From an uncultured Verrucomicrobiae bacterium (lineage in GTDB: Bacteria > Verrucomicrobiota > Verrucomicrobiia > Limisphaerales > Palsa-1400): a DNA stretch of 64,000 nucleotides. Where the stretch lies: NCBI GenBank assembly GCA_963759415.1, contig CAVWZG010000002.1, forward strand, positions 259,131 to 323,130. Direction: 5' to 3'. Of the stretch, positions 28,636-50,842 are shown piece after piece (the stretch's first letter is position 1; each line of letters starts with the position of its first letter). A program made the translations under genes and the position numbers. The notes under the pieces were generated by a model. That model ran no database searches and was not told the DNA's origin. It was given only the letters and a program-made list of their open reading frames with translations.

Positions 28636-28748
28636 GAGTCATTTGCGTCGCTGATGTATTCCAGTTTTCATCCTTGTAACGGCTCATTGATAACAACACC
28701 CCATCGCATCCACAATCCCAAAACTCAACTCACAACCGCGAAATTCCA

Positions 28749-34006: not shown

Positions 34007-34016
34007 CTGAATATAA

Positions 34017-34043
34017 AACACCCGCCGGATCCAAAATCCGACA
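34017..34043 (-). promoter_or_regulatory. Candidate ECF-type autoregulatory promoter
   Basis: TGTCGGA-N16-TGTT ending ~10 nt before ATG 34006; layout resembles the TGTC-led -35/N16/-10 of ECF41-type promoters. Confidence 0.4.
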
Positions 34044-34078: not shown

Positions 34079-36825
34079 TCATTTCGCATCGCTTTTCTTC
34101 TTGTCTTGCTTTGACTCCGAGTCGTTCTGCTCCCATTTTTGGATTAGTGACATTTTTTTGTTTGCTTCCTCCAGCAACTGCCGGGCTTGTGCCTGGGTGC
34201 GCACGACCTTGGGGCGGAGAAAGACCAGCAGTTCGGTCTGTTTGCTGGATGTGTCCCGTTTGCCGAACAAATATTTCAATCCAGGGATGCTGCCCAAAAT
34301 GGGGGTTTTGTAGCTGGTATCGCTAAGTTGCTTCTGATTGATGCCACCCAAAACGAGCGTCTCGCCGGCTTTGGCGGTCAGTTTCGTGCGGAATTGGGCG
34401 GAATCAAACACCGGCTGGCCCAGGATTTGGCTTGGGTCAAGGGTGGACGATTCCGTGCGGATTCTACAGGCAAAGTCCCCGGCGTCGTTGATGTGAGGTT
34501 CGACCTCGACGATCACGCCGACATTCCTGTAAGTGAAGCTTTGCGAACTCCCACCTGTGGCCGGGTTCAAGTTGCCGGTCTCGATCGGGATCGCCTGGCC
34601 GACAAAAAGCTTGCCCATGTCATTGTCCTCGATGGTGATTTGCGGTTCGGAGATGACCGTGGCGTCGGCTTTTTCATGCAGGAACTGGATGAGGAAATCC
34701 ATGCTGATGCTGCCGGTCAACACGCCGGAGCGCAAACTGGTCAGGGCTTGGGCCACCGAGGCAGCGGTACTGGAACCGCCGGCGTTGATGGGATTGTTGA
34801 CTTGGGTGTTGTTGCCAACACCTTGCAGGTATGTCCCTCCCACGTTGGGCATGAGGGAGTTCTGATAGTCGGCCCCGGTAAAGACCTGGCTGCCGTTGGG
34901 CGTGTAGCGCACGCCGATTTGATCCAGATAATTGGCGGATATTTGCACCAGCCGGGCTTCGATCATCACTTCGGCGCGCGGGATGTCCATTTCCTCGATC
35001 ATCTTGCTCACCTGGGCAAACAGGTGAACATTGGCCGTGACCAGCAAGGCACTGCTGGCTTCGTCCGGCACCACCCGCACCCTTCCCACCAAATCGCTTA
35101 CCGGGCGATCCGTGCTCCGCTCCACCGAGGCGTTGCGCCCGGTGACATCGGGCGTTCCGCCAAGCCAGGAATAATAGGCGTCTTCCTTGACAACCTGTTC
35201 CAGCGAGAAATCGTCCGCCGGGGGAGTGGCGGTCTGCGTTTGCTGCGCGGTCTGGGTTTGGGGATTGGCGCCGTTGGGATTCTGCTGGGTGACCGGCCTC
35301 AACGGTTGGGCGCCGTTCTTGGCAAAGAGGATGTTGATCCGGTTGGCGATCTTCTGCGCGTTGCCAAAATTCAACTTGACATGATAGGTGGTGTCGCCCG
35401 CCGCCGATGGCTTGTCCAGTTCTTTCACCACAGTTCTTTCACCACCGCGATCACCGCCTCGAGGTTCTCCTGCGAATTGGCCGTGATGATGAGGGCGTTG
35501 GCGGACGCCTCGCTGGTGATGCGCACCTTGCCATACAACCGCCCCACGTCCCGGTCGGCTTGCGGGGCCTGCGGCTCGAAGTAATCAAAATAAGACCGTT
35601 GCGTCGTCTTTTTGAGAAACAGTTCGTTCAGGACGTCTTCGATGTCTCCTGCGCTGACGTTTTCCAGGTGGACGATTTTTGGCTCAAGACTGTTGTCCTG
35701 AATCGGTTTGTCCAGCGCGGCGACAATGGCGGCGATGCCCTCCATCGCGGCGGGCGGGGCCTGGACCAGGATGGCGTTGCGGCGGCGATCGGCCACGATG
35801 GTCGCCTTTTTGGTGTCCTTCGCGTTCGAGTTGCCGCGGTAGTAATAGAAGGGGTTGGACTCGTTCTCCTGGTCCTTGCCCAGGTCCTGCAATTGTTTGG
35901 CCACGTCCTGGGCGTCGGCGTTTGTCAACTCAACTGTCCTCATCACCTTCTCCTGTGCGTCGGCCGTGTCGAGCGACGTTGCAAACTGCTCGATCTCCTT
36001 GAAATTGGCTGCGCTGGAAAGCACCATCAGCGCATTGGCGCTGTCGCTGGCCGAAACTTCGATAAGTTCCTTGGACTGCTTGGCGGTCAATTTTTGGAAG
36101 AGAGGCTGGATCTGCTTGGACAATTCCTGCGCGTTGACGTTCTTCAAATTGATCGCCCGCACGACGACGTCGTCTGTCTTTTCCACGTCCAGGGCGCTGA
36201 TGAGCCTGGCGGCGGCGGCCAGATTATCGTTGTAGTCCGTGACGATCATGACATTGGCCCGATCGTCGGTCACAACCACGGCATTGGTGAAGACGCCTTT
36301 GACTTTCTCGGTCAGGTCCGCGGAGGGAACGTGGTGCAGAGGAAAGACCTTGACCAATCGCTCGTGGCCGCCGGGGATGGCCGTGTCCGCGGACCCGAGC
36401 AGGTCGGGTGTCAGACTCATCTTCGATTCCTGGTCCGCCGGCACAATCAGGATGGAGTCCCTGGTTTCAATGGCGGCAACTCCTTCCATGTTCATGGCGC
36501 GATAGACCATCGTCACCGCTTCCTGCCGGGTGATCTTCTTGACGCCCACGATGGTTACCTGGCAACGGGCATTGGGATGTTTGACAACGGTCTTGCCGGT
36601 GTTCTCGCATAGCCACTGGACGACTTGGTCAATCGGCATGTTCTGAAAGCTCAACTGGATCAAATCGGTCGGCAGTTTCTTGACTTCAATCGGCGCGTTG
36701 GTCGAACCGTCGGGCGCATTGGTCGAAGCTGCCGCCGTCGCGGGAGAATTGGTCTCCGCCGCGGCGCGCGGGGGGCGTTGGTGGCGCCGGGGGGCGCGGC
36801 GGTTGGGTTCGCGTCTTGCGCAGCG
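34079..36825 (-). pseudogene. gspD: Type II secretion GspD-like secretin, disrupted
   Basis: N-domains (IQLSFQNMPIDQV, DDRANVMIVT) and secretin core (YRNVGVIVEVEPHIN, TPILGSIPGLKYLF, ELLVFLRPKVV); split by a 14-bp duplication at 35417-35444, frameshifted near 36772, signal peptide missing. Confidence 0.88.
35417..35444. repeat. Perfect 14-bp tandem duplication causing the secretin frameshift
   Basis: cagttctttcacca cagttctttcacca. Confidence 0.95.
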
Positions 36826-36943
36826 TAAATGCCCTGCAAAATCGAGTAAAGCGTCGTCGTCTTGCCGCTTCCGGTCGGCCCGGTGGCCAGAAACAGGCCA
36901 TGCGGCTTCTCCACCAACCGCGCCATCAACTCCGTGCGCTCCC
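36826..36943 (-). pseudogene. gspE: GspE/PilB ATPase fragment (Walker A only)
   Basis: [36 protein letters not shown] fused directly to the secretin N-terminal linker. Confidence 0.85.
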
Positions 36944-36966
36944 GCGCTATGGGGTGTTCACCTACC
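36944..36966 (-). promoter_or_regulatory. Stress-cluster box, truncated promoter lacking its -10
   Basis: gcgctatggggtgttcacctacc; the gspE relic begins immediately where the spacer and -10 should be. Confidence 0.6.
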
Positions 36967-36990
36967 AGGGCTTTCACCCTGCTACAATGG

Positions 36991-37596
36991 CTATGGAGTC
37001 CTGCTCCGGTTGGTCACAGATGATTCTGTTCTCGAAAGCAACAGCAGGAACACTTCCTGATAGAGATTCTTCATGTCCTCGCCCACGCCTGCGACCGCGC
37101 GGGCACGCTCGGGTTGAGGTTCGTTCTTGCTGGTGACTTGTGCCAGATGCCAGGCGTAGCTCAAGGCCTCGGTCTGGGTCAAAAGCAAGGTCAGCTCAAA
37201 CTTGGCGCCAGTCTGAGTCAATAATTCTTTCTCCTTGGTGGACGCTATGGCATCGCGCGTCCTGGCTTCCCCCGGTGGAAGCTGGATGTCGTCCAAACTG
37301 ATCGAAGGATCATGTTTGGCAAATTCTTCCAACAGCTTTGATCCGGCCCCGGAAGCAGCGGCGATTTTCTTAACGATGTTCTTGACTTCGGAATCTTCCG
37401 GCTTGATGAAGCGCAGGATGCTGACGTCTTTTTGTTCGTCCAGGAGCTGATGAAGCAAACTGTAGCCATTGTTTCGCGTTGATCTCGTCACGCTGCTTGA
37501 GAATGGAGGCTTGCCCTTTGACGATTCACAGCCAGTCAGAACGCAAATGAGCGATAACAATGCCGCAATCTGCGGGAAAGTAATCTTCGTTTTCAC
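36991..37596 (-). CDS. Helical (ferritin/DUF4142-like) lipoprotein
   Basis: Lipobox VLTGC after a hydrophobic stretch (start GTG 37596 or ATG 37623); all-helical [20 protein letters not shown]. Confidence 0.65.
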
Positions 37597-37669
37597 AAAT
37601 AGACGCCCTGGCTGGTCGTTCATGGATGGTTCTTCCGGAACTTGCGGATCGCAACCTCGGAATATTCGC

Positions 37670-37846
37670 TCAATGGCAGCAGCAACCGGCGGCAAATTCT
37701 GTGATCGCCTTTTTGATCGCCTCACGCGTCTCTCCTGTGCATTTCTGAATTCGGCCCAACAGTTCTTCCTGCTTGCCTTCGACGTATTGGAGATCGTCGT
37801 CCGTGAGCTTGGCCCACGCCAAATCCATTGTCCGGTTTATTTTCAT
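37670..37846 (-). CDS. CsbD family stress protein with apparently replaced N-terminus (possible pseudogene)
   Basis: WAKLTDDDLQYVEGKQEELLGRIQKCTGETRE is CsbD-like; the usual GNWxxxKGKLK segment is absent. Confidence 0.75.
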   Translation of the reverse strand: MKINRTMDLAWAKLTDDDLQYVEGKQEELLGRIQKCTGETREAIKKAITEFAAGCCCH

Positions 37847-37852
37847 GCTTCT

Positions 37853-37898
37853 AGAATAACCTGGAGACCTTCCTGCCGCCATGGGGTGTTCTCCCCTT
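37853..37898 (-). promoter_or_regulatory. Stress-cluster box plus promoter (leaderless)
   Basis: Minus strand: AAGGGGAGAACACCCCA-TGGCGG-N17-TATTCT-N6-ATG. Confidence 0.7.
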
Positions 37899-37909
37899 CC
37901 GATTTGTCA

Positions 37910-38092
37910 TCAGGTTGACAGGATCGGTCTTGTCATTGCCTGGTACATCATTTCCTCGCTGAAGAATGGGGTGCCATATAATTCGTACCCGCCTTTTAGC
38001 TTTTCGTTCACTTTCTGCGCAAGCTCGTCGTGGGTTGCGGCATTGACGTGAAAAGGCACAGCGACGATGATGTATTCGATCGGAGTTTTCAT
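37910..38092 (-). CDS. Small DUF1737-like protein
   Basis: EYIIV...[21 protein letters not shown]...YQAMTR; ATGA overlap with the zwf stop. Confidence 0.75.
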
Positions 38093-39642
38093 TTTGTTTT
38101 GAGTTTTTGTTTTTTTCCCTGCTTCACGCATTCCCCCACCAACTCGGTTGGCAGGGGCCAACTATGTCCGAGAGCCAACAGACCCTGTGTTTCCTCGGGT
38201 CCCCAGGTTCCCGCGGCGTAATTTGGAAAGTCGCTGGGCGGAGCCATTGCCCAGACCTCGAGCACCGGCATCAATAATTGCCAAGCCGCTTCGACTTGGT
38301 CGGCGCGCATGAACAGCGTGGCGTCATTCTTCATGATGTCCCAGAGCAGCGTTTCATAAGCGTCGGGCGACTGGGTGTCGAACGTGTCCCGGTAATTGAA
38401 CTTCATCTCCACGGACCGCAGGCGCATCTTTGGACCGGGATGTTTGGCCTGAAAGCGCAGCACAATGCCCTCGTCAGGGTGGATGGACATCGTCAAACGG
38501 GACGGTTGCCAATCGAGAGTGGCCTCGGGCGGAAACGACTGGTGCGGCACGCTGCGGAATTGGATCGTAATTTCCGAGGCCTGCCGGACAAGCCGCTTCC
38601 CGGTGCGAAGGTAGAAAGGCACGTCCTGCCAGCGCCAATTGTCCAGGAAGAGCCTTAAAGCCACAAACGTTTCCGTTTGGGAAGCTGGCGACACACCGTC
38701 TTCTTCGCGATAACCGGAAACTTTTTTTCCGCCGACCCAGCCTTGGCCGTATTGTCCGCGCACCACGCATTGATGGACGGCGTCAGGGTGAATTGGACGC
38801 ACGGCGTGGAGGACATCCACTTTCTTATTGCGAATCTCGTCGGCATTGAATGACACCATCGGTTCCATGGCCACAAGGCAGAGCAATTGCATGAGGTGAT
38901 TCTGCACCATGTCGCGCAGCGCTCCCGCGTGATCGTAATAGCCGCCTCGATGTTCGACTCCCACCTCTTCGGCAGCGGTGATGGTCACATAATCCACATA
39001 TCGCCGGTTCCAGAGCGGTTCGAAGAGCGGGTTGGCAAAGCGGAAAGCCAGAATATTTTGGACCGTTTCCTTGCCCAAATAATGGTCGATACGGAAGATT
39101 TGGCATTCTTCGAAATTGGCGGCGAGGATGGCATTGAGGGCGCGGGCCGATTCCAGGTCGTAACCGATCGGTTTCTCGACCACGATCCGCGCCCATTTCC
39201 GGTCGCGGGCCAGGCCGGCTCGTCCAAGGTATTTTGGGATCTCGCCGAACATGCTCGGCGGAGTGGCCATGTAAAAGATCCGGTGGACTTTGGCGCCCCA
39301 TTCCTTTTCTAGTTTCGCGCATTGTTCGCCAAGAGCCGTGTAAGTTTGCAGCTTCTCGAAATCCCCCTGCTCATAGTGAATATGCCGGGCAAACTCGGCC
39401 CATTCACCGGCTTTCGCCTTTCCCTGGCGCGAGAACTTCTTTACGCCGTCGCCGAGACGCCGTCGCAGTGTTTCATCGCTCAGGTCAATGCGATCCACCG
39501 CGATGACCGCAAAATGCGCGGGCATGCTTCGATCCTGGGAAAGGTCAAACAAGGCCGGCACCAGCTTTCGCCAGGTCAGGTCGCCGGCCCCGCCAAAAAT
39601 GACAAATACAGTCGGTTCAAGTTGGTCGTTTGTTTTCATCAT
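38089..39642 (-). CDS. zwf: Glucose-6-phosphate 1-dehydrogenase
   Basis: [38 protein letters not shown]. Confidence 0.97.
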
Positions 39643-39664
39643 TCCGGCTTCCTCTCCCATATAA

Positions 39665-42211
39665 TCACCGCTGCCATAGGATGTATGAGGCCTCCAGAGG
39701 AACCGCGACACTGTCCCGGCGCGGGATCACGCGCGCGGTGTAATCCCCTGGCGGGCGGGCCGCAGGGACAGTTGCGCTATAGACATAGCCGCCGGTTGCG
39801 CCGGTCAGTGGACGAACGTTCTTCATTTCCTGCCGCTCCGGATTGCCCCCATCGGCTCTGTCGGCATAAAGCTCGACTTGCACCGCCTTGGGGTCGAGGT
39901 CGTCGAGATAAACTTGAAGTTCAAAAACGTGCTGCTGATCTTTAGTCTCCACCTTCATTTGGCCGAAGCGCAACGCGGACCATTTCTGTTTGAGACCGTG
40001 CTGCCACTCGACTATCTGCCTTCCTCTGGCGCCCTTATTCGCGACGCGCAACTGCTGGGCAACGGCAGCCGGCAGGTAGTGCTGCTCGGTGTAATCGCGC
40101 ACGGTGCGGCTGGCGGAAAAGCGCGGCGTCAACTGTGCCATGCTTTCCCTCATCCGCGCCACCCAGGCAGTGGGAATGCCCTTATCGTTGCGGGAATAAA
40201 ACTCGGGGATCACTTCCCGTTCCAGCCGCTCGTAAAGCGCCACGGCTTCGGCCGCCTCCCAGGCCGGATCGTCGCCGTGCTCCTGGCCATCCCCCAAAGC
40301 CCACCCCACTTGGGGCGCATACGCCTCGGCCCACCAACCATCCAACTCCGAGAGATTAATGCCGCCATTGACAAGCACCTTCATGCCGCTCGTTCCGCAC
40401 GCCTCCCAAGGCCGTCGTGGTGTGTTGAGCCAAACATCCACCCCCTGCACCAGGCGCTCGGTCAAATGCATGTCGTAGTCACTGAGAAAAATCGCATGGG
40501 GGCGGACTTCGGGCTGGCGAATGAACTGGATCCATTGCCGGATCAGGGCTTGTCCCGCCGCGTCCGCGGGGTGGGCCTTGCCCGCAATGATGAGTTGCAC
40601 CGGGCGTTGAGACTGGGTGAGCAGACGAAGCAGTCGCCCCGGGTCGTGCAGCAGCAGGTTGGGCCGTTTGTAGGTGGCGAAACGCCGCGCAAAGCCCAGC
40701 GTCAACGCGTTGGGATCGAAGAGATGCTTTGCCTCCTCAACCGTCTCGGGCGACGCGCCGGCAGCCGCATAGTGGAGAGCCAGGCGCTCGCGAGCGTATT
40801 CTATCAGAGACTTTCTGGAGGAATTGCGAAATTGCCAAAGGTTGGCGTCGGAAACCCGGCGGATCTCCTGCTCCAGATTATCCTGTCTTCCAAGCCAGCG
40901 GTCCTTTTGACAGGCTTTCGTCCAAAGATCGTCGGCTGCCGCCGAATCCCAGGTCGGCATGTGGACTCCGTTGGTCACGTGTCCGACAGGCACTTCGTCC
41001 GCCGGCCAGTGAGGAAAAAGAGGCTCAAAGAGATGCCGGCTGACTTTCCCATGCAAGCGGCTCACGCCATTGACCGCCCCGCTGCCGCGGATGGCCAGAT
41101 AGGCCATGTTGAAACTTTCCGACGAGTCGTCCGCATTCTGGCGGCCCAGAGCCAGCAAATCCCGGAGCGGAATGCCAAGCTTTTCCCCGGCGTACTTGCC
41201 GAGGTATCGTTCGATGAGATCGGGAGCAAAGCGATCAAAGCCGGCGGCGACCGCCGTGTGGGTGGTAAAAAGGTTTCCCGCTCGCGTGGCGGCCAACGCA
41301 ACGTCAAAGGGCTGCCCATTCTCCTGCATGAAACTGCGGGCGCGCTCCAACACGGCGAAGGCCGCATGTCCCTCGTTGAGATGACAGACTTCCGGGCGGA
41401 TGCCAAGCGCTGCCAGCAGCCGCCATCCGCCAATGCCCAGAAGCAGCTCCTGCTTGAGGCGCAAATCCGGCCCGCCTCCATACAGTTCGCTGGTGATCCC
41501 GCGATGAGCAGGAAAGTTCGCCGCGTCGTTGCTGTCCAACAGGTAGAGTTTGACCCGGCCAACCTGGGCCTGCCAGGCGCGCAGCCAGACCGAGTACCCG
41601 GGCAAGGCGATCTCCAACCTCAACCACTCGCCGTTCGGGTGGCGCACCGGCGAGATCGGCAACTGTCCGGGGTCGTTATAGGGATAGAGGGCCTGTTGTG
41701 CGCCGTCCTTATCAATCACCTGTCGAAAATAGCCCTGTTGATAGAGCAGTCCCACTCCGGCCACTGGGACGCCAAGGTCGCTGGCGGCCTTGAGTTGATC
41801 ACCCGCCACGTTGCCCAGCCCACCCGAGTAAATCGGCAGCGCTTCGCTCAACATGAATTCCATGCTGAAATAGGCCACGCACGTCAAGGCAGACTGGGGA
41901 TGCTGTTGCTGGAACCACGCCGGCGCCGCCGCCGACTGGCGTTTGGCTTGCAGCAGGTCATCCACTTTCTTCCGAAAGGCTGGATCGGCCAGCGTGCGCT
42001 CGAGTCGGTCCCTCGCGACCGTCTGCAGGACAACCCAGGGATTTTGCGTCAGTTCCCAAAGCGCGGGATCCAGCAGCCGCCACACCTCGTCGGCGCCATG
42101 ATTCCACGACCAGCGCATATCCAAGGCCAGCTCCGCCAAGGAATCGAAGCCCTCGACTTCCGTAGGAAGAAGATTGTAGATCGGGTGGCTTATTTGCGTT
42201 TGTTTGCTCAT
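39665..42211 (-). CDS. glgP: Alpha-glucan (glycogen) phosphorylase
   Basis: [31 protein letters not shown] (PLP lysine). Confidence 0.96.
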
Positions 42212-43857
42212 AATTTCCTTTCCAAAGCATTACTGACAATCGTTTGTGCTTCCTCCAGTATGCGGCGCAGATGGTCTGCTCCCTGGAAGCTCTCCCCATA
42301 AATCTTGTAAATCTCTTCTGTTCCGGACGGACGGGCCGCGAACCATCCGCTCTGCGCTGCCACCTTCAAACCGCCGATAGGCGCGCTGTTGCCTGGGGCC
42401 TGAGTAAGAACGCTCTGGATTTTTTCACCGGCCAACTCCGTGATCTTCACCTGCTGAGGTGAAAGTTTCGCCAGCAATGCTTTTTGGGCAGGAGTGGCAG
42501 GCGCTTCAACGCGGTCATAGACAGCCTCACCGAATTCGCGCGTAAGCTTGTGGTAGATTTCTCCAGGATCCTGTCCCGTTCGCGCGGTCATCTCCGCGGC
42601 GAGCAGACACGGAACGATTCCATCTTTGTCCGTCGTCCAAACGGCGCCGTTCAAACGAGCGAAGGAGGCCCCGGCGCTTTCCTCTCCGCCAAAAGCCAGC
42701 GAGCCGTCGAGCAAACCATCGACAAACCACTTGAAACCAACGGGAACCTCATAAAGTTTGCGGCCCAGTTTTGCGGTGACGCGATCGATCATTTGGCTGC
42801 TCACCAGGGTCTTGCCGACCGCCGCTTCCCTGCGCCACTCCGGCCGGTGTTGAAGAAGATAGAAGATGGCGACAGAAAGGTAATGATTAGGGGGCAGCAA
42901 TCCTTTGCTCTTGGTCACAATGCCGTGCCGGTCATGGTCGGTGTCGCAGGCAAAGGAAAGGTCAAAACGGTGCTTTATCCCGATCAACCGTTCCATCGCA
43001 TAAGTCGAGGACGGGTCCATCCGTATCTGACCATCCCAATCCACGGTCATAAACCGAAAAGTGGGATCCACCTCTTCATTGACCACAGCAAGTTTCAAAT
43101 CATAGCGCTCGGCAATTCGTCCCCAGTAATGGATGCCGGCGCCGCCAAGGGGATCCACACCCATGTCAAGCCTCGCGTCGCGAATGACCTCCATGTGAAC
43201 CATGTCGCCAAGATCGGCAACGTAGGGGCTGAGATAGTCGTGCTGATGCGTTGTCGAAGCGCGCAGAGCCTGCGCATGGGGGATCCGTTTCACCCCGGCG
43301 AGCCGGGCTTCGAGCAACTCGTTGGCCTTTGCCTCAATCCAATCGGTGACGACATTGTCCGCCGGCCCGCCCTTGGGCGGATTATACTTGAAACCGCCGT
43401 CCTGTGGCGGATTGTGCGAGGGCGTGATGACAATTCCGTCGGCCAGCCCCATCTTCCTGTTGCGATTGTAGGACACAATCGCATGAGAAATCACCGGGGT
43501 CGGAGTGTATTCGTCTCTTTCTGCGAGCATCACCTCGACTTCATTTGCCGCCAGGACCTCAAGCGCGGTGGTGCGCGCCGGAACGGAAAGCGCATGTGTG
43601 TCGATACCCAGAAACAACGGGCCGGAGATATTTTGCTGCTTGCGATAAAGGCAAATCGCCTGGGTGATCGCGAGGATGTGCCACTCGTTGAAAGCCCGGT
43701 TGAACGAGGAGCCGCGATGCCCCGAGGTGCCAAACGCGACGCGTTGCGCCGACACCGCTGGATCGGGATCATCGGTATAATAGGCGGTGATAAGCCGCGA
43801 AACATCGACCAGTATTCCGGATGGAGCCGGTTTCCCGGCAAGGGGACTTATTTTCAT
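42208..43857 (-). CDS. pgm: Phosphoglucomutase
   Basis: MKISPLAGK start, FGTSGHRG, TPSHNPP, DTDHDRH, GEESAG, RPSGTE. Confidence 0.96.
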   Translation of the reverse strand: MKISPLAGKPAPSGILVDVSRLITAYYTDDPDPAVSAQRVAFGTSGHRGSSFNRAFNEWHILAITQAICLYRKQQNISGPLFLGIDTHALSVPARTTALEVLAANEVEVMLAERDEYTPTPVISHAIVSYNRNRKMGLADGIVITPSHNPPQDGGFKYNPPKGGPADNVVTDWIEAKANELLEARLAGVKRIPHAQALRASTTHQHDYLSPYVADLGDMVHMEVIRDARLDMGVDPLGGAGIHYWGRIAERYDLKLAVVNEEVDPTFRFMTVDWDGQIRMDPSSTYAMERLIGIKHRFDLSFACDTDHDRHGIVTKSKGLLPPNHYLSVAIFYLLQHRPEWRREAAVGKTLVSSQMIDRVTAKLGRKLYEVPVGFKWFVDGLLDGSLAFGGEESAGASFARLNGAVWTTDKDGIVPCLLAAEMTARTGQDPGEIYHKLTREFGEAVYDRVEAPATPAQKALLAKLSPQQVKITELAGEKIQSVLTQAPGNSAPIGGLKVAAQSGWFAARPSGTEEIYKIYGESFQGADHLRRILEEAQTIVSNALERKL

Positions 43858-43908
43858 GGATTCTTGTTCCGTGTCAGCACCGCCAGTGGCCGGTGCAGTT
43901 ATCACGCC

Positions 43909-43954
43909 AACATAATCCACTGAACCGTCCGGGCGCTATGAGGGATAACCCTAT
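43909..43954 (-). promoter_or_regulatory. Stress-cluster box plus promoter upstream of pgm
   Basis: Minus strand: ATAGGGTTATCCCTCA-TAGCGC-N18-TATGTT. Confidence 0.6.
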
Positions 43955-43959
43955 TTTGT

Positions 43960-44112
43960 CTATGAGATTTTGAGGCGATTGAACACGGGGATTTTAGCAA
44001 AGTCCAAGATGAATCCAAAAACCACTGGCGCCACGAATATTCCTGCCACAACAAATAGAGGCAGAGGAGCCATGGCGATCCCGCAAATCGCCAGGGTTGA
44101 GGCAATCATCAA
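43960..44112 (-). pseudogene. C-terminal remnant of a P-type (PMA-like proton-efflux) ATPase
   Basis: Not in the ORF track; hand translation LMIASTLAICGIAMAPLPLFVVAGIFVAPVVFGFILDFAKIPVFNRLKIS* resembles the last two TM helices of bacterial PMA-type ATPases. Confidence 0.6.
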
Positions 44113-44124
44113 ATACGCACTTTC

Positions 44125-44265
44125 TTATGCGGCTTCTCCGCTCGCCTGACGCATTTGGTCGTGCTCCGCATCAGCGATGCCTTCTTCGATAAGCCTCTCA
44201 TTATCGCTTCGCCCCTCGTCGTCCTCATCCGCACTGGGCGCCACTGGCGCTTTGTGTCCGGCCGA
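44125..44265 (-). pseudogene. 3' remnant of a small acidic protein
   Basis: SAGHKAPVAPSADEDDEGRSDNERLIEEGIADAEHDQMRQA with no own start; overlaps the PRC-barrel gene end out of frame. Confidence 0.5.
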
Positions 44266-44905
44266 ACACCGTGGATTCCTCGTAACTGATGCGGTCCCCT
44301 TTATTCGTCGGTATGAGCACTTCCTTGCCGGAAATGCGGTGACCCGTCTTGACAACCAATTGGTTAACCGCCCAACTCTTGGCGTCCATCATAAAATCGC
44401 AGACATGGCCGATCACCTCGCCGCCCGCCTTGAGGTTGTAACCGATGACGGCTTGCGCGCTTCGCAAATGCGCATCGGCGCATCCGGATTGCGGCCCGCT
44501 CGTGCCGTCTCGTGCGCTCAGGGGAGGTTTTACGGACAGCTCCACAAGCGGGAACCCGCTCGGGCCCCACAGCCCGTCACCCTGCCAGTATGCCGGCCAA
44601 CCGTAATAGCGGTAATACTCCTCTTCATATTGTCGCGACACTGGCTTGTGCGACTCAATCGAAGGGCTGTTCTCAATTTGTTTCCGGGTCAGCTTCACGC
44701 GCAGGAGTTTTCCAGGCTCGTCGAGGTTGCCGAGCGAGTGGGGCGAGATAAGCACCTGCCGCCCAGGCAACCAGGAGCCTGTGTCCGCGACCACATAGCG
44801 AATCGCCCAGCTTTGATCGTCGAAATAAAAGTCTTTCACGTGGCCGATTTCTCCATCGGACGCACCGAGTTTCTCCCCAAACAATTGTTTAATGCTTCGT
44901 ACCAT
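44225..44905 (-). CDS. Tandem PRC-barrel domain protein, C-terminus apparently truncated
   Basis: DGEIGHVKDFYFDDQSWAIRYVVADTGSWLPGRQVLISP and a second barrel IGHVCDFMMDAKSWAV; ends abruptly after ISYEESTVF. Confidence 0.85.
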   Translation of the reverse strand: MVRSIKQLFGEKLGASDGEIGHVKDFYFDDQSWAIRYVVADTGSWLPGRQVLISPHSLGNLDEPGKLLRVKLTRKQIENSPSIESHKPVSRQYEEEYYRYYGWPAYWQGDGLWGPSGFPLVELSVKPPLSARDGTSGPQSGCADAHLRSAQAVIGYNLKAGGEVIGHVCDFMMDAKSWAVNQLVVKTGHRISGKEVLIPTNKGDRISYEESTVFGRTQSASGAQCG

Positions 44906-44920
44906 AATATAGTCCTTTGT

Positions 44921-45250
44921 TTAAATTGACTGCTGACGGTGACCTGGCGGGCGGAATGCCAGCCAGAGGGTGAAAATCAGGCTCGCGCCTTTAAGAATGG
45001 TTTGCAGCCAGGAAGGTTTTGCATTGGCGTCCACAGGTTTGCCGCGCCGGAAGGCCGCCAAGCCCGCCACCAGCACTGCGGCTGATGAAGCGATCGAAGT
45101 GAAGGATTTGGCGCGGTCGGCGAACATGCAAACGTCCGCCGTCAACCCGGCCAGATTCCCGGCCATCTCGGCGCGGTTAAGTTCACTTTCGGCAAGCAAG
45201 AGCTGTTTCCGCAATTCGAGCGGCTTCAAGCGAGGATTTCTTCCAAACAT
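44921..45250 (-). CDS. YqjK-like small membrane-associated protein
   Basis: LELRKQLLLAESELNR; position after YqjE-like and DUF883 genes; true start may be slightly downstream. Confidence 0.65.
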   Translation of the reverse strand: MFGRNPRLKPLELRKQLLLAESELNRAEMAGNLAGLTADVCMFADRAKSFTSIASSAAVLVAGLAAFRRGKPVDANAKPSWLQTILKGASLIFTLWLAFRPPGHRQQSI

Positions 45251-45616
45251 GCGCGATCCTTTCGAAGTTGGTCCAGTGAGGCGGAAAACGACTCCCAGTC
45301 ACGCAGCAACCCAGTGAGTCGGCGGCAAAGCCAAACTCCGGCTGCGCCATAGAGTCCGGTTAATGTGAGGAGAACGGCCACGGGTGAGCCAGCCCAGAAC
45401 AAAACCACGATGGCAGCCGTCAACGTCATGCCTTGCGAGCAGACCAAACGCGGCCACGCCCAGGGCCAAAAGAAAGGCCTGCAGGAGGCGTTCGCGCCCC
45501 TCCTGCACTTCCACCGTCAACAGTTCGAGCCGGTTTTCCCCGATGGTCAACAGCCGGCGCGCGAAGTCCTTCGAGCTCGCGGCCAGTTGACTGACGCTGA
45601 CAGAGGCTTCTTCCAT
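45226..45616 (-). pseudogene. YqjE / phage-holin-family membrane protein, frameshifted (real lesion or sequencing error)
   Basis: ENRLELLTVEVQEGRER...AAFGLLA continues in another frame as GMTLTAAIVV...FSASLDQLRKDR; one extra base at ~45433. Confidence 0.8.
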
Positions 45617-45623
45617 AACGCGC

Positions 45624-45929
45624 TCAATCGCGATTACAGGAGCACCGGCGGGCGACGAGATAACCCACGAGCGCTCCGACTCCGACCCCGATGGCTATGG
45701 CTTGATAGGGATGCTCATGCACGGCTTCGTCGGCCGCTTTGGCGCCTTCGACCGCTTTGGCGCGGACACGTCCCGCGATTTCCTTGGCGCGTTCCAGCGC
45801 GACGGTCAGACGCTTGCGGGCTTCCGCAACTTTCTCTCCGGCCACATCGGCGGTGGCGGTCATCAAAGCGCGCGCGTCTTCGGCGATCGTGCCCAGGTCA
45901 TTACCGATATCTTGTGTAGGTGTATTCAT
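45624..45929 (-). CDS. DUF883 / ElaB-YqjD family protein
   Basis: AKAADEAVHEHPYQAIAIGVGVGALVGYLVARR. Confidence 0.92.
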   Translation of the reverse strand: MNTPTQDIGNDLGTIAEDARALMTATADVAGEKVAEARKRLTVALERAKEIAGRVRAKAVEGAKAADEAVHEHPYQAIAIGVGVGALVGYLVARRCSCNRD

Positions 45930-45944
45930 ATTTTTCTGTCGTTT

Positions 45945-46313
45945 CTATTTGTTTGAGTTATTCAGTGGTAAATTTTCCGCGTCGGCCAGATGGGCGGCTT
46001 CCGGCGAACTGGCCACCTTCAATACCGAGTTTCTTCCGCCAAACGGGTTGGGCACGGTTTCTCTGGCTAGCGGGTCGGGCATCCATTGACCGTCCACCAC
46101 CAGGCAGTATTCGTAGGTGCCGGGTGCCAGTTCCGTATCTTTGAGCCAATGACCTTGGCCTGCCGGATGCATGGCTTTGGTGGCGGGCTGCCACTGGTTG
46201 AAAGTTCCGGCGACGCACACCTTTGTAGCCGTGGGATGAGTGAATTCAAAGCGAACGCGCATGAGCTGGGGGCCGGGGCCAGGGACGTTGTCGTGGTTGC
46301 GATTGTGTTTCAT
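45945..46313 (-). CDS. Stand-alone glycogen-binding domain protein (CBM48/AMPK-beta-like)
   Basis: VCVAGTFNQW...LAPGTYEYCLVVDGQWMPDP...NPFGGRNSVL. Confidence 0.9.
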   Translation of the reverse strand: MKHNRNHDNVPGPGPQLMRVRFEFTHPTATKVCVAGTFNQWQPATKAMHPAGQGHWLKDTELAPGTYEYCLVVDGQWMPDPLARETVPNPFGGRNSVLKVASSPEAAHLADAENLPLNNSNK

Positions 46314-46378
46314 AGTTGGTGATTCATTTTGAACGGTTGACTTTCGATTTTCAAAAAATGTTGCATGTCACGCCGCTA

Positions 46379-46423
46379 ATAATACGGCGGAAACATTGTC
46401 AATGCTATGGGTGTTACCCCACC
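46379..46423 (-). promoter_or_regulatory. Stress-cluster box plus promoter upstream of the CBM48 operon
   Basis: Minus strand: GGTGGGGTAACACCCA-TAGCAT-N17-TATTAT. Confidence 0.7.
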
Positions 46424-46437
46424 CAACCTTCCAGCAC

Positions 46438-48459
46438 TCAGTCGGATTTCGGCGGCAATGACTTCAAACCTCCCAGCGCTCCCAAAATGGTCTTTTGCAC
46501 CGCCGGATTGTAGAGATTCCCCAAGTGCCCGCCCTGCGCGAATACGGTCAATTGTTTCGGGGCAAACGTGGCGCGCAGCCAGGCCAGGTCCTCGTCCGCG
46601 AGCAGAAAGTCATTTTGATTGACTATAACGCGGATGTTGGGATTTGCGCGCAGACCGGCATCATACGTCCGCAAATCACCGGCTTTCTCCATCGCTTCCG
46701 CCACCGGTGAGGCCATGCCCCTGGCCCGATAATAGGGGACGGCAAATTTCGCAAAGTAATCCTGGTAGGAATACTGAAGGATTTCCTGATAAGCCGGATC
46801 CCGCCTCCAGCTCCGCATCGGGTGTCGCAGGACTCCCTGATTGTTTCGGCGCTGACTGCTGAAAATAATATCCCGCAGCATGAACCGAAACGTCAGTCCG
46901 ATGAGAAACTTGGACTCAATGGCGTTGAATGGCAGCGAGGTTTGCGGCGTGATTTTGTTCTTGCTCATGGCGGCCATCTTCAAAAAAGTGTTGTCGATGT
47001 TGTCGGTTCGTTCGGCTTCCGGCCAGGACAGGGGCGCCCGATAATATGCGTCCAACTGGGAAATCCCATGCAGTAACCGGACTGGGGTGTTAATGGCAAC
47101 GTAGCGGTCAAACTTCATCAACGGCAATGCGTTCGTCGGCTCGGTGGACGCGACGTACAAAGAATCGAATGCGCCCATGGAATAGCCCATCAACGCTTTC
47201 TGGCCCAGGCGCCCCGGATACAACGTCCTCAATCGGTGATCCATCTCGGTCAAAGCGACGTGCAAGTCGTGGCCATCGACCGGCAGATAAGCCGGCATGG
47301 CCGCGGTCGAGGCGTGCTCCATGAACTCAGAGTTGAAAGGGCTGCTGATGCACACGGCGGAAAAGCCGTTCGAGTAAACCAACTCGGCCAGCGCCAGGGA
47401 TGTTTCAGCCAGTCGATGGGAGCCAAGGCCGGGTATAATGTAAACCACGGGCGCTTTTCCCGGTTGCAACCAAAACGTGAACTTTAATCTGCGGCCCGTG
47501 CTCGGAATCAGAACCGACCGGGTCGTGCCTCGATCTGGGAAGCCAGGGTCTTTGTAGGTAAAGAAGACCGATTCGAGGGTTTCCAAGGAGGCTTCGTCCT
47601 GTTTTCCCTTCACTTGAAAATCCGCCACCCGGTTCTCCCGCACGAACGTCCACGCATACTGGATTTCGGCATACGGATCCATTTCGGCCTGACTGAAGCG
47701 CACCGATTCGCGCACGGTATCGGCAAAATCGTTATACATGACCGCGTAGGTGAAATAAGTGTAGGGGCCGAGATAGGTCAGCGGATTGTTCGCGTCAAAT
47801 TTGTAGGGAGAGATGTAGAGCAACGGATTGGCGGCCGTGTCCGCGGCCCAGCCAACCGTATCCCGTTCATTGCTCGGCCCCAGAATGGGCAGCATCAGAA
47901 AACAGGAAGGCTTCCAGCCCCACTGGCCAAACGTCTGGCCAAAATCCGCGTCCGATTTCAGAATGTGCCATTTAAGCGCCACATCGAAAAACCCGCCCAC
48001 TCCGACCGTCGTGTTGCAAACGAAACGGTAGGATTCGTCGCGTGCTCCGGTCCACTTTCCCTGGAGCAAGTTGTTGATCGCCCGTCCCGGGTACACGAGG
48101 TTCCTGCCCATATTTCCGAATCCGGTTCGGACCGGTTTCACGACCACAAACCGATAAAGCTTGCTCGTCGGCTTGATGACGTCGGTCATCAACCCTTTAT
48201 TGAAGGCCCACATCGCCCGATTCCATGGTTCGATGGGGTCGGGAACGGATTTGGGCAGAACAACGGTCTGCGCCGCCGGCGAGTTCGTGACTCCTACGGC
48301 TGGCTGCTGCCCGCGTGCAAACGGCAAGAAGCACAACGGCAGAATTAACAGCGCCCAACCTCGAAGAATACGGCCCAATCGACTTTTCAATTTACCCGCC
48401 TTTCCGGCCATGAGAGACAAAACTTTGGGGCTTATTGGCGGAATGACATCGTCGTTCAT
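46438..48459 (-). CDS. VacJ/MlaA domain fused to an alpha/beta-hydrolase
   Basis: DPIEPWNRAMWAFN, NTTVGVGGFFDVA, DFGQTFGQWG, LPILGPSNERD, followed by GYSMG elbow, NQNDFL and GGHLGN; ATG 48459 lies 6 nt after the -10. Confidence 0.85.
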   Translation of the reverse strand: MNDDVIPPISPKVLSLMAGKAGKLKSRLGRILRGWALLILPLCFLPFARGQQPAVGVTNSPAAQTVVLPKSVPDPIEPWNRAMWAFNKGLMTDVIKPTSKLYRFVVVKPVRTGFGNMGRNLVYPGRAINNLLQGKWTGARDESYRFVCNTTVGVGGFFDVALKWHILKSDADFGQTFGQWGWKPSCFLMLPILGPSNERDTVGWAADTAANPLLYISPYKFDANNPLTYLGPYTYFTYAVMYNDFADTVRESVRFSQAEMDPYAEIQYAWTFVRENRVADFQVKGKQDEASLETLESVFFTYKDPGFPDRGTTRSVLIPSTGRRLKFTFWLQPGKAPVVYIIPGLGSHRLAETSLALAELVYSNGFSAVCISSPFNSEFMEHASTAAMPAYLPVDGHDLHVALTEMDHRLRTLYPGRLGQKALMGYSMGAFDSLYVASTEPTNALPLMKFDRYVAINTPVRLLHGISQLDAYYRAPLSWPEAERTDNIDNTFLKMAAMSKNKITPQTSLPFNAIESKFLIGLTFRFMLRDIIFSSQRRNNQGVLRHPMRSWRRDPAYQEILQYSYQDYFAKFAVPYYRARGMASPVAEAMEKAGDLRTYDAGLRANPNIRVIVNQNDFLLADEDLAWLRATFAPKQLTVFAQGGHLGNLYNPAVQKTILGALGGLKSLPPKSD

Positions 48460-48465
48460 CACATG

Positions 48466-48531
48466 ACAATAGATTGGAAAACGCTTGGGCGCTATGGGGT
48501 GTTTTCCCCATAGAAGAGCACCCCATGGCGC
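48466..48531 (-). promoter_or_regulatory. Double stress-cluster box plus promoter (leaderless)
   Basis: Perfect CTATGGGG-N6-CCCCATAG plus an inverted second copy (gagcaccccatggcgc); minus strand TAGCGC-N17-TATTGT-N6-ATG. Confidence 0.72.
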
Positions 48532-48560
48532 TCGCACCTGCCGGAACGATGCTGATTCCC

Positions 48561-48626
48561 GGTAGGGTGAGACTCCGTCGAACCCCGACTCGATTTAGTC
48601 ACAGCTCGACAGAGTCTCGCTCTACC
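48561..48626. repeat. GTAG-type REP-like inverted repeat
   Basis: GGTAGGGTGAGACTCCGTCGAAC ... GCTCGACAGAGTCTCGCTCTACC. Confidence 0.75.
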
Positions 48627-48740
48627 GAGCCATATCCGATACCAACCTCGGGGGCCAAGTCTTGCCCCTACGCAAATAGTCCGTGAATGCAGATCTTCCA
48701 GGCGCGTTGAATAATTGATTTTTTAGTAGTATCAGAATAT

Positions 48741-49346
48741 ATGAAACTGGCTAAACTGCAAGAAACCAAGTCAACGATTCGCTTCAGCGCCAAGCTGTTT
48801 CGGCCTAAGGCAACCGATAAGTTTGGATCGCGGACCCTTCTAACTCTGCCCAAGAACGCGAGTGCGAAGCTTCCATCACGAAGCATGACGATGGTCGAGG
48901 GCACCATCAATGGCTTCCCTTTTCGAGACGCTCTCGAACCAGACGGCAAAGGAAGCCACTGGCTCAGCGTTGACAAAGCGCTGCACAATGCTGCCGGCGC
49001 AGACGATGGAGACACGGTCACGGTGGAGATTACGCGCGTCGGAGAAGAACCGGAGATCAGGGTGCCAATGGATCTACACGCAGCCCTTGCAGCCGCCCCG
49101 CTGGCGCAGGCGTTGTGGGCGAAAATCACACCCATGGCGCGGCGGGACTGGATTCTCTGGATAAGCTCAGCCAAGCAACCGGAAACGCGCAGGGGCCGGA
49201 TCGAGAAAGCGTGCGACATGCTGGCATCTGGAAAGCGGCGAGTGTGCTGTTTTGGCGGTCTAAATTGGCTTAGGAAAGATCACCCAACAGCAGGCGAAAC
49301 ATGGCTTCCGTTGCCGGACTCGCCCAGAATAGTGGACAGTGGCTAG
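48741..49346 (+). CDS. DUF1905 plus YdeI/OmpD-associated domain protein
   Basis: VEGTINGFPF...PDGKGSHWL; VPMDLHAAL...RRDWILWISSAKQPETRRGRIEKA. Confidence 0.88.
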   Translation: MKLAKLQETKSTIRFSAKLFRPKATDKFGSRTLLTLPKNASAKLPSRSMTMVEGTINGFPFRDALEPDGKGSHWLSVDKALHNAAGADDGDTVTVEITRVGEEPEIRVPMDLHAALAAAPLAQALWAKITPMARRDWILWISSAKQPETRRGRIEKACDMLASGKRRVCCFGGLNWLRKDHPTAGETWLPLPDSPRIVDSG

Positions 49347-49398
49347 TGATTAGTGGCCAGTCAGACGCCATTCTAACCACTGGCCACTAACCACTAAT
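49330..49398. repeat. Inverted pair of 7-bp-period tandem repeats between convergent genes
   Basis: agtggac agtggct agtgatt agtggcc ... taaccac tggccac taaccac. Confidence 0.8.
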
Positions 49399-49420
49399 TC
49401 AGGGAAACAGGGACCCGCAA

Positions 49421-50842
49421 TTATTGCGCAACAATCTTAATTACATGCGTCACGGGCAGAAAGGCCGCATGCACCGCCGCCACCAAAGCATCGTGTTCCC
49501 TTTCGGCGTCGCCCACCACCTGGTCGGTTTGGGCGGCGACTTGCGCCATCGTTGGCCGGCGGTTGACGGTGGCAGGGCGGAACAACTGCTTCATTTCTTT
49601 GGTTTCATAAGCCTGCTTGGCCGCGACCGCCGCGTCCACTTTGGCAAAGGTTGCACTGAAGGGATTGGCGGGGAATTCCGCCGCCAGATTGATGCCTTTG
49701 GCCAATCGCTCCGCCGGGAAGGTTTTGCTCTCGCCACCCCATGTGATCTGGTATTGGCTGGCATTGCCGCTTTTAACCACCAGCGTCAGCCGGTTCAATT
49801 CCTGATTGAAAGGCACAAAGGTCATTCCAGAACGAATGCTGTCGTCTGAATCAAGGCCATCCCGGCCGCAGACAGGATAGGAGACTGCCGCCTGACCTTC
49901 CGGCGCGCAGGCACAGAACGGATAGCGGCTGCTTTCAATTTCATATTCTCCCGCCTTGGCCGAAACTACTTGATGACCTTTTGAGACCTTCATCTTGTTC
50001 TTCTTCAAATCCACCGAGAATGTTCCAATGTCGCCGTCCAGTCCGAGCGCTTTCAAATAAGCATACGCCATCAACGTATGCCCGGCCCAATGCGGATGCA
50101 CGCCGTCGTTGCCGGGAATGCCGTAATTGGCGCCATATCGCTGGCTTCCCAAAAATCCACCGGTCAGCATCGGCCAGAAAACATCGGCAAATCCGACATG
50201 TTCTTTCTGGGCGAGTGTCACGTCAATGTTGCGCAATTGGCACAAACTCAAATTCAAATCCTCCACGGTGCCGTTGGCGGACTTCACCCAGCCCGGCGTT
50301 TTGCTCACGTCACCAGGCGCGCCGAGAACCACTCGGACGCCGTGCGCTTTGAAAGCTTCGACCATTTTCATCGAATTCGACTCATAGGCCTGCCCAATGC
50401 GATCTTGGTAGGGACGATACTCGAAATCGTTCATACCGTAAGCAGTCGTGGCAACGGTAGGATGGAAGCGCAAACAATCATTGGTCATGCGCGCCAAAAA
50501 ACCCGGCACTTTTTCACCGCTCCAGCCAAATTGGCGCACCGAGACTTGGAGTTGTGGAACACACATCGTCAGGTAATCCTCCATGAGGCGCGAATACATT
50601 TTCTGTTCGGTGATCGAATCACCGCAAATCGCCAGATGGTCTCCCTTTCTTAGGACCAGTCTGGAGGGCGCGGGCGCTTTGAGCGGTTGATATTTTTCAA
50701 AATAAACGTCGTCGGGTTTCGGCTCCAGCAGTGGCGATGCGACCAACGTAAATTGAACGAGTCCGAAAAAGAAAATCAGTTGTGCGCGCAAAAGTGAGCT
50801 GAAAAGGTTTGTTTTCACACGCCGGTCTAAAGCTGGAGTCAT
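49421..50842 (-). CDS. Secreted SGNH/GDSL hydrolase
   Basis: GDSIT, GWSG, GMND and DGVHP blocks; start uncertain. Confidence 0.88.
   Translation of the reverse strand: MTPALDRRVKTNLFSSLLRAQLIFFFGLVQFTLVASPLLEPKPDDVYFEKYQPLKAPAPSRLVLRKGDHLAICGDSITEQKMYSRLMEDYLTMCVPQLQVSVRQFGWSGEKVPGFLARMTNDCLRFHPTVATTAYGMNDFEYRPYQDRIGQAYESNSMKMVEAFKAHGVRVVLGAPGDVSKTPGWVKSANGTVEDLNLSLCQLRNIDVTLAQKEHVGFADVFWPMLTGGFLGSQRYGANYGIPGNDGVHPHWAGHTLMAYAYLKALGLDGDIGTFSVDLKKNKMKVSKGHQVVSAKAGEYEIESSRYPFCACAPEGQAAVSYPVCGRDGLDSDDSIRSGMTFVPFNQELNRLTLVVKSGNASQYQITWGGESKTFPAERLAKGINLAAEFPANPFSATFAKVDAAVAAKQAYETKEMKQLFRPATVNRRPTMAQVAAQTDQVVGDAEREHDALVAAVHAAFLPVTHVIKIVAQ

Follow-up and report, generated by a model that had tools for sequence, protein, structure and literature searches.

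What are the GGG..CCC boxes that stand at five intergenic sites in one stretch of an uncultured Verrucomicrobiae genome, and which protein might read them? The stretch analysed here, called the window throughout, covers 64,000 nucleotides (nt), G000:C2:259131-323130, of the source genome G000 (5.33 Mb, 11 contigs); other G numbers denote related genomes and L numbers denote loci that were fetched or compared. A sequence-only reading of the window had proposed that the boxes define a general-stress or dormancy regulon, run either by an activator encoded outside the window or by an alternative sigma factor. The shared box is real and lies far beyond chance. Its dyad symmetry and fixed spacing, the stress-linked families behind it and a regulator gene about 660 kb away favour the first option. 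We therefore suggest, with a probability of about two in three, that the boxes form the upstream half of promoters which depend on an activator, most likely the NarL-type regulator P0002, and which serve a conserved stress regulon. Every gene of this finding in the window lies on the minus strand.

Read in gene orientation, the box is ctATGGGGT-N4-ACCCCATaGCgc, with GGTAGGGT as a variant left half. Type I boxes are imperfect inverted repeats (ATGGGGT-N4-ACCCCAT); in type II boxes the left half is GGTAGGGT and lies one base closer (GGTAGGGT-N3-ACCCCAT). A -10 element of the form TAnnnT begins 25-26 nt past the CAT of the box, and TAGCGC stands where a canonical -35 would be expected. Conservation is highest in the promoter-proximal half and in the AGCGC that follows it.

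All five window sites (36944, 37877, 43933, 46404 and 48489) are where the sequence-only reading placed them. The exact 10-mer ATGGGGTGTT is present at 36944, 37877 and 48489, and the sites at 43933 and 46404 hold approximate copies only. These three are the strong window sites (minus strand, anchors 36951, 37883 and 48496). Box 5 (48489..48513, minus strand; anchor 48496) is the promoter of an MlaA-hydrolase gene and a type I box with the perfect palindrome CTATGGGG-N6-CCCCATAG; its position weight matrix (PWM) score is 38.2, or 36.9 with a PWM built from relatives only. There CTATGGGGAAAACACCCCATAGCGC is followed, after 17 nt, by the -10 TATTGT (48466-48471), then by CATGTG and by an ATG (48457-48459) that begins 6 nt past the -10. 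The second, inverted copy reported beside it is a half-box, GCACCCCATGGCGC (48517..48531, plus strand; PWM score 16.7), directly upstream of box 5 and facing a divergent DUF1905/YdeI gene.

Box 2 (37876..37900, minus strand; anchor 37883; PWM score 28.1, relatives-only 23.7) serves the CsbD gene with the same layout: GGAAGGGGAGAACACCCCATGGCGG, 17 nt, the -10 TATTCT (37853-37858), AGAAGC and an ATG (37844-37846), again exactly 6 nt past the -10, as had been read for these two genes. Box 4 (46402..46426, minus strand; anchor 46409), at the CBM48 operon, has a type II left half and a 1-nt deletion (CCC for CCCC); its promoter reads GGTGGGGTAACACCC-ATAGCAT, 17 nt, TATTAT (46379-46384), with a leader of about 65 nt. 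Box 3 (43933..43957, minus strand; anchor 43940), upstream of pgm, is a degenerate type II box with two mismatches in its promoter-proximal half, and its promoter reads AATAGGGTTATCCCTCATAGCGC, 18 nt, TATGTT (43909-43914). All four -10 elements and their spacings were thus as described before. Box 1 (CTGGTAGGTGAACACCCCATAGCGC; 36944..36968, minus strand; anchor 36951) scores 33.5, and 29.0 with the relatives-only type II PWM, and has neither a -10 (the best candidate scores 3/7) nor a gene; this orphan is a remnant promoter.

Chance, genome-wide ranking and promoter geometry

Within the window, the 10-mer at up to one mismatch gives nine matches against 4.48 expected, and two of 100 shuffles reach nine. 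Such over-representation of the 10-mer alone is weak evidence, and chance was therefore judged on a wider basis. A further exact 10-mer at 28695 (plus orientation) was ruled out as a site, as it comes without the AGC, a -10 or a gene start. In the whole genome, ACACCCCAT[AG]GC occurs seven times. When a PWM is built from nine sites, those nine score 25.7-38.9 across the 5.33 Mb, and the next best match scores 17.7. Since this test is circular, the PWMs were rebuilt from relatives' sites only (57 of type I, 25 of type II), and they again rank the G000 sites at the top of the genome. The type I ranking runs 967008, 967877, window 48496, 962003, 965328 and window 37883; the type II ranking runs 1923755, window 36951, 961664 and window 43940. 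Site 961664 is a new, weak one before a BON gene, and the pgm site is a marginal one, fourth genome-wide at 16.6, with the next match at 13.7. With its 1-nt deletion the CBM48 site escapes an ungapped PWM, but it is clearly the same promoter that stands before its paralogue at 1923755 and before CBM48 genes in five other genomes.

The nine strong sites fall in three loci only. Some 11-12 promoters of this design are present in the genome, in the window, at C2:961.6-967.9 kb (L001) and at C2:1923.6 kb (L002), and six of the strong ones lie outside the window in the other two loci. The motif scan of the genome, a check that had been proposed along with the regulon, finds eight of the nine strong sites upstream of a gene in the right orientation, the exception being the orphan at 36951. 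A start codon stands 6-7 nt past the -10 at seven of the nine.

The box is not confined to this genome. Pattern counts across the order cover 201 sampled genomes, and the count of regulator homologues given below covers 200. The 15-mer AACACCCCATAGCGC is present at up to one mismatch in 90 of the 201, with a reversed control near zero per genome (16 matches against 1 in G216, 12 against 0 in both G035 and G165). The type II pattern GGTAGGGT-N4-CCCCAT is found in 118 of the 201 and is far above its control in many of them (20 against 1 in G098, 17 against 1 in G119). Among 250 further genomes of the phylum the 15-mer, searched as the strict pattern only, gives at most two matches per genome and, judged by eye, does not exceed the reversed control; of 13 inspected matches outside the order, only L088 has the full architecture.

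The geometry was measured on 111 non-redundant sites with a PWM score above 18, nine from G000 and 102 from about 31 related genomes. Because the relatives' loci were picked for motif or regulator matches, numbers from this set describe architecture and not frequency, and its conservation profile is biased inside the PWM columns. Of the 111 sites, 67 have the motif TA...T at offsets 24-27, counted from the CAT, where ten control windows of four offsets give 0-9. An ATG or GTG stands at offsets 37-39 in 63 (18+27+18), and other single offsets mostly give 0-8, with a maximum of 13. The offset of the -10 is 25 or 26 in 80 of 94 sites. The fixed spacing between box and -10, together with the start codon 6-7 nt past the -10, is family-wide and independent of how the -10 was picked. 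The idea that type II promoters have leaders and type I promoters are leaderless was dropped, as a start codon occupies the leaderless position at 44 of 62 sites of type I and at 15 of 26 of type II; only the CBM48 promoters have a common leader, of about 60-70 nt.

The same geometry bears on whether the box might instead be an operator, with a repressor sitting over the -35 region and the genes turned on by de-repression. The site does cover the -35 region, and dyad symmetry is equally typical of repressors. However, the -35 hexamer is nearly invariant as TAGCGC, a poor match to the canonical sigma-70 element, which makes the promoters seem too weak for activity without help. The distance to the -10 varies by no more than about 1 nt, as face-of-helix activator contacts require, and the presence of the system's own signalling genes in the regulon fits positive feedback. 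We therefore hold control by a repressor to be decidedly unlikely.

Another possibility is that an alternative (general-stress) sigma factor recognises the 15-mer as its -35 element, the second option of the sequence-only reading. Conservation is indeed higher in the promoter-proximal half with its AGCGC than in the distal half, other phyla have the same target families under sigma control in their stress regulons, and a gene for an extracytoplasmic function (ECF)-type sigma factor lies 3 kb from box 1. Against this, the best-conserved CCCCAT lies upstream of the -35 hexamer, a dyad of about 22 bp is too long for a region 4 contact, and the -10 is of the housekeeping TAnnnT type. Proteins around boxes were scanned with Pfam, 130 in all (38+62+30, the 62 being genes behind boxes), and no sigma factor domain was found among the genes behind boxes. 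The ECF sigma gene of the window has no box, and decayed secretion genes lie between it and box 1. A sigma factor as the reader of the box is thus very improbable.

The candidate regulator and its kinases

The protein that we suspect of binding the box, P0002, is a REC-GerE response regulator of the NarL family (Response_reg 1.9e-27, GerE 1.4e-17), encoded at G000:C2:964492-965169 (open reading frame (ORF) L001:9378-10169), about 660 kb from the window. It joins a receiver to a GerE/LuxR helix-turn-helix, as in the NarL/FixJ group, a HisKA_3 kinase is encoded nearby, and it aligns over its full length to VraR, NarL, DesR and DevR. By its sequence P0002 is an ordinary NarL-family member; as the box-binding activator it is the best candidate, a role suggested by synteny and co-occurrence.

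Orthologues of P0002 (64-87% identical) stand beside boxes in many families. At seven loci from at least six families (L031, L033, L035, L039, L042, L043 and L051), an orthologue 68-86% identical over its full length lies directly upstream of a box, with the end of the regulator gene 50-300 nt before it. Boxes with a PWM score above 12 occur within a few kb of the regulator in nine of 12 further loci with P0002 homologues; the remaining three are L053, L055 and L059, of which L055 and L059 are short contigs. In each of 13 loci, a HisKA_3 kinase is encoded one or two genes upstream of the regulator. Among the 130 scanned proteins, REC-GerE is the only DNA-binding family that recurs beside boxes; no CRP/FNR-family regulator is among them, the rest of the genome not having been searched for that family. 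A strong homologue of P0002 (E<1e-79) is encoded in 78 of 200 genomes of the order (hand count from tables), and these 78 include 29 of the 32 genomes with at least three 15-mer matches and 30 of the 33 with at least six type II matches. G012, of the same family as G000 and 98% complete, fits this pattern, with no regulator homologue at E<=1e-40 and no convincing box. This co-occurrence of regulator and box is supportive, not proof.

The home locus of the regulator, L001 (C2:961.6-967.9 kb), is itself rich in boxes. One precedes genes for an 89-amino-acid (aa) protein and a BON-domain protein. A divergent run holds a frameshifted kinase remnant, an RsbU_N-HisKA_3-HATPase kinase, a 173-aa ORF and P0002, and a box directly after P0002 precedes a REC-PAS-HisKA_3 kinase. 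Further boxes precede P0001, a 216-aa protein with a coiled-coil repeat region and a GerE domain, and the PAS kinase P0003. The palindrome at L001:7003 was first thought likely to be used in both directions, the second being that of the kinase-regulator operon. This is no longer favoured, since the first kinase gene looks frameshifted, with an RsbU_N-like start in another frame, and since the -10 candidates differ between genomes. The first 108 residues of P0003 are 78% identical to those of P0001, both with AEARTEQ-like heptad repeats, and P0001 looks like a response regulator in which the receiver has been replaced by the coiled coil of a kinase. P0001 (L001:12047-12694) and P0003 (L001:12915-14360), at G000:C2:967047-969360, also have a duplicated promoter in common.

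P0001 is the main reason to consider that a transcription factor other than P0002 binds the box, be it P0001, a receiver protein of the regulon or an unlinked factor, with P0002 only a target or co-regulator. P0001 has a GerE helix-turn-helix and sits behind the highest-scoring box of the genome, genes for receiver-only and REC-DUF7354 proteins are repeatedly found behind boxes, and three to four box-rich genomes are without a strong P0002 homologue. Yet of the 201 genomes of the order, just 29 were found to encode the P0001 lineage (E<=1e-25), too few for a general reader of the box, and the box-rich G117, G119, G159, G193, G108, G166 and G070 were not among them. As a general reader of type II boxes it was likewise rejected, these boxes being plentiful in many genomes without the lineage. 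The receiver-only proteins have no DNA-binding domain, and no other DNA-binding family recurs among the 130 proteins. A reader other than P0002 is accordingly unlikely.

With P0002 as the activator, the mechanism would be of a familiar kind. HisKA_3 kinases, the one in G000 carrying an RsbU_N-type N-terminus, would phosphorylate the NarL-family regulator, and a dimer of it would bind the inverted repeat ATGGGGT-N4-ACCCCAT or GGTAGGGT-N3-ACCCCAT. The promoter-proximal half would abut or overlap the -35, and a transcription start 7 nt past the -10 would put the 22-bp site at about -54 to -33. The regulator may then recruit RNA polymerase with a housekeeping-type sigma factor to TAnnnT promoters that have no recognisable -35, as in class II-type activation; the layout suggests that an activator stands in for the -35 contact. 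About half of the promoters would yield a leaderless mRNA, which starts at or beside the start codon. In G000 the targets would include CsbD, BON/OsmY-like proteins, DUF883/ElaB-like operons with CBM48 and PRC barrel, the MlaA-type lipid protein and the operon for pgm, alpha-glucan phosphorylase and glucose-6-phosphate dehydrogenase. The putative signalling targets are the REC-PAS-HisKA_3 kinase, the PAS kinase and the GerE-only paralogue; given that these are the system's own signalling genes, feedback is implied.

Several observations weigh against this proposal. The promoter-distal half-site is poorly conserved or of the other type at many sites, where a symmetric dimer predicts more. P0002 is closest to VraR (6e-43), and DevR (3c3w, 5e-24) comes behind VraR, NarL and DesR. 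The thresholds of the co-occurrence counts were chosen after the data had been seen, and the genomes are related and not independent. NarL-type regulators have many paralogues, with up to 13 matches per genome. Box-rich genomes without a strong homologue are G137, G151 and G194 for the 15-mer and G062, G142 and G194 for type II; in G151 and G194 the control counts are near the match counts. A regulator homologue 78% identical is present in G001 (same genus, 95% complete), which has no boxes, either near the homologue or genome-wide. As neither G001 nor G012 shows convincing boxes, the regulon is patchy even among close kin. Finally, in 17 pgm-homologue loci of relatives, no box lies within 250 nt (the best score being 4.7).

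On the input side, the scanned kinases carry RsbU_N, PAS, HisKA_3 and HATPase_c domains by Pfam and no GAF domain. RsbU_N occurs only as a kinase N-terminus, and a kinase bearing it stands beside the regulator in G000 and in the relatives' loci L035, L060 and L064. Operons of KaiC (585-588 aa), KaiB, KaiB, a PAS-HisKA_3 kinase and the regulator are found at L043:3543-7338, L054:1914-5693 and L063:7449-11333, in relatives of three families (G150, G173 and G098). This arrangement suggests that a KaiBC timer or hourglass may feed into the stress regulon.

Genes behind the boxes

The regulon draws on families known from stress regulons elsewhere. CsbD, BON/OsmY-like, ElaB/DUF883, entericidin, PRC-barrel, Dps/ferritin-like and glycogen-linked families are known from RpoS, SigB and EcfG regulons. 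Among the 62 scanned proteins behind boxes, entericidin-like proteins (51-aa lipoproteins) occur seven times, AMPK1_CBM/CBM48 five times, PRC-barrel four times and Ice_binding-like proteins three times. DUF3309, BON, B12-radical-SAM, receiver domains and PAS kinases also recur, and DUF883, YflT, DUF4142, ferritin, DUF5670, DUF3185, a P-type ATPase and an orthologue of the MlaA-hydrolase are present too. A conserved protein of about 52 aa without a Pfam family, with the motif ...LTFGEY/F...CGKRRA..., is repeatedly found behind a box as a predicted leaderless gene (L005, L048:3670-3765, L052:417-572 and 4912-5067). The reading of the whole as a stress regulon is well supported.

In the window, most gene names given by the sequence-only reading hold up in Pfam. 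PGM, phosphorylase, G6PD, CBM48, ElaB/DUF883, PRC and MlaA were recovered and CsbD weakly so, but the "ferritin-like" lipoprotein and "YqjK" have no Pfam support, and the match behind the YqjE name is weak. The gene at box 5 (46438..48459, minus strand) encodes an MlaA-domain lipoprotein (Pfam MlaA, E 4.7e-54) fused to a C-terminal hydrolase-like region, and its mRNA is predicted to be leaderless. The orthologue in G119 is also behind a box, with the ATG 7 nt past the -10. On the other side of box 5, a gap of about 200 nt (48532-48740) separates the inverted half-box from the DUF1905/YdeI gene (48741-49346, plus strand), and a GATGCT hexamer on the plus strand stands 24 nt past the half-box. 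Rfam and tRNA scans of window 36000-50000, this gap included, gave no match.

The CBM48 operon (44225..46313, minus strand) has five genes, encoding a CBM48/AMPK1_CBM protein (45945-46313), a DUF883 ElaB-like protein (45624-45929), a holin_3_6/YqjE-like protein (45299-45616; E 0.0046 in the window copy), a 109-aa membrane protein (44921-45250) and a PRC-barrel protein (44225-44905); the CBM48, DUF883 and PRC assignments are by Pfam. A paralogous CBM48 operon lies behind the box at G000:C2:1923755, in L002, where one box of a divergent pair precedes a lipoprotein gene and the other precedes this second CBM48-DUF883-holin_3_6 operon. The same type of promoter precedes CBM48 genes in L002, L043, L044, L050 and L052, and CBM48 proteins are firm members of the regulon.

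Behind box 3 lie pgm (42208-43857), alpha-glucan phosphorylase (39665-42211) and glucose-6-phosphate dehydrogenase (38089-39711), all on the minus strand (38089..43857) and assigned by Pfam (PGM, phosphorylase, G6PD). They adjoin or overlap one another and are presumably a single operon; the likely start of pgm, by alignment to orthologues, is the ATG at 43857, with a leader of about 45 nt. In the textbook pathway these enzymes lead from glycogen through glucose-1-phosphate and glucose-6-phosphate to NADPH. A second pgm, 60% identical, is present elsewhere in G000 (C3:435119-436750), and the window copy thus looks like a stress-specific paralogue; its closer orthologues (70-88% identical) are found in 12 of 24 genomes of the same family only. 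In G013 and G018 pgm is at the edge of a box cluster. Given that the pgm box is degenerate and not conserved in relatives, the case for the glycogen operon comes from G000; the operon probably belongs to the regulon in this genome, and its membership is unproven as a general feature. A search for sequencing runs that contain window 38601-48600 gave no RNA run and three soil-metagenome DNA runs, each with a small share.

Downstream of box 2 are genes for the CsbD-like protein (37670-37846, minus strand; Pfam E 3.9e-9, below the curated cut-off) and for a 210-aa lipoprotein (36991-37623, minus strand) that matched no known family in the Pfam scan. Box 1 had been described as cut by a deletion exactly after TAGCGC. 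It is indeed fused, with no -10, to an internal remnant of a GspE/PilB-type secretion ATPase (36816..36941, minus strand; about 40 codons, Walker A region), but the junction is resolved no more finely than to a few bases; homology to the ATPase begins within a few bases past TAGCGC. The T2SSE profile is covered at positions 129-168 only, from about residue 13 to 54 of the remnant ORF. GC-rich junk follows, then a secretin split between two overlapping ORFs (34079-35431 and 35425-36663), with N0/Secretin_N domains in one and the Secretin domain in the other. Window 34079-36977 is what is left of a secretion locus after decay, joined to a promoter remnant. The ECF-type sigma factor gene beyond it (32585-34021, minus strand) encodes regions 2 and 4 in its first 180 residues, followed by a C-terminal extension of about 300 residues with a predicted membrane segment and a coiled-coil-like stretch, and has no box before it.

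Known counterparts and what the regulon may mean

The functionally nearest known system appears to be the DevR/DosR regulon; the system here would work like DosR without being a member of the DosR family. DosR/DevR of mycobacteria and OsdR of Streptomyces likewise combine a NarL-family regulator with HisKA_3-type kinases and stress or dormancy genes. As in DosR/DevR, the boxes are inverted repeats with half-sites that start with a run of G, and the system's own signalling genes are in the regulon. The sequence-only reading had likened the boxes to NarL/DosR-type sites; the likeness is borne out by the linked NarL-family regulator, but P0002 is closer to VraR and is not a DevR orthologue. DosS and DosT, the sensor kinases of DosR, carry GAF (haem) domains, whereas the kinases here have RsbU_N or PAS and no GAF was found, and KaiC-KaiB-KaiB stands before the kinases in three relatives. 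The letters of the half-sites, the target families and the leaderless design also differ.

One report on the DevR regulon places the proximal Dev box 33-34 nt from the start point, with half-sites that begin GGG and a C-terminal DevR dimer that reads a G-run-initiated motif in each half of the palindrome (PMC3177182). If transcription here is assumed to start 7 nt past the -10, the proximal edge of the box would be at about -33 to -35, against the 33-34 nt of that report. The same report gives every DevR promoter at least two tandem boxes (PMC3177182), in contrast to the one box at most promoters here, where only box 5 has an extra half-copy.

The likeness to the RpoS, SigB and EcfG regulons is one of content: CsbD, BON/OsmY-like, ElaB/DUF883 and the other families listed above. 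Unlike those regulons, the one described here has a 22-bp dyad with a housekeeping-type -10 and no sigma-specific pair of -35 and -10, and the linked regulator gene encodes a two-component regulator, not a sigma/anti-sigma module. Class II promoters of the CRP/FNR type, and some of the NarL family, share with it a dimer site over the -35, fixed spacing and no usable -35; the centre of the site would be at about -43.5 here, compared with -41.5 in CRP/FNR.

Verrucomicrobia and their relatives are abundant in soil and mostly uncultured, and we found no description in the literature of how their general stress response is organised. Nor did we find the box or the regulon in print, including the literature on Verrucomicrobia stress response, promoter motifs and leaderless genes, the supplements of which could not be read. 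The regulon is undescribed in print and conserved across a large, little-studied order.

It is tempting, if doubtful, to see in the box and the NarL-type regulator the master general stress response of the order, perhaps even more widely of the Planctomycetes, Verrucomicrobia and Chlamydiae (PVC), with leaderless transcripts for fast, ribosome-direct expression and a kinase input that is swapped between lineages. If so, RpoS, SigB and EcfG would have a counterpart built on a two-component activator, its input coming from RsbU_N-type kinases in this genome, from PAS kinases in other lineages and, in at least three families, from a KaiC-KaiB-KaiB timer. The box names a candidate master regulator and its kinases, and leaderless translation is predicted for many small stress proteins, among them DUF3309, DUF5670 and the 52-aa and 51-aa proteins. 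In this genome, the mobilisation of glycogen towards NADPH would be tied to the stress programme. With its near-invariant sequence and fixed geometry, the box makes it possible to recognise the regulon in any genome of the order.

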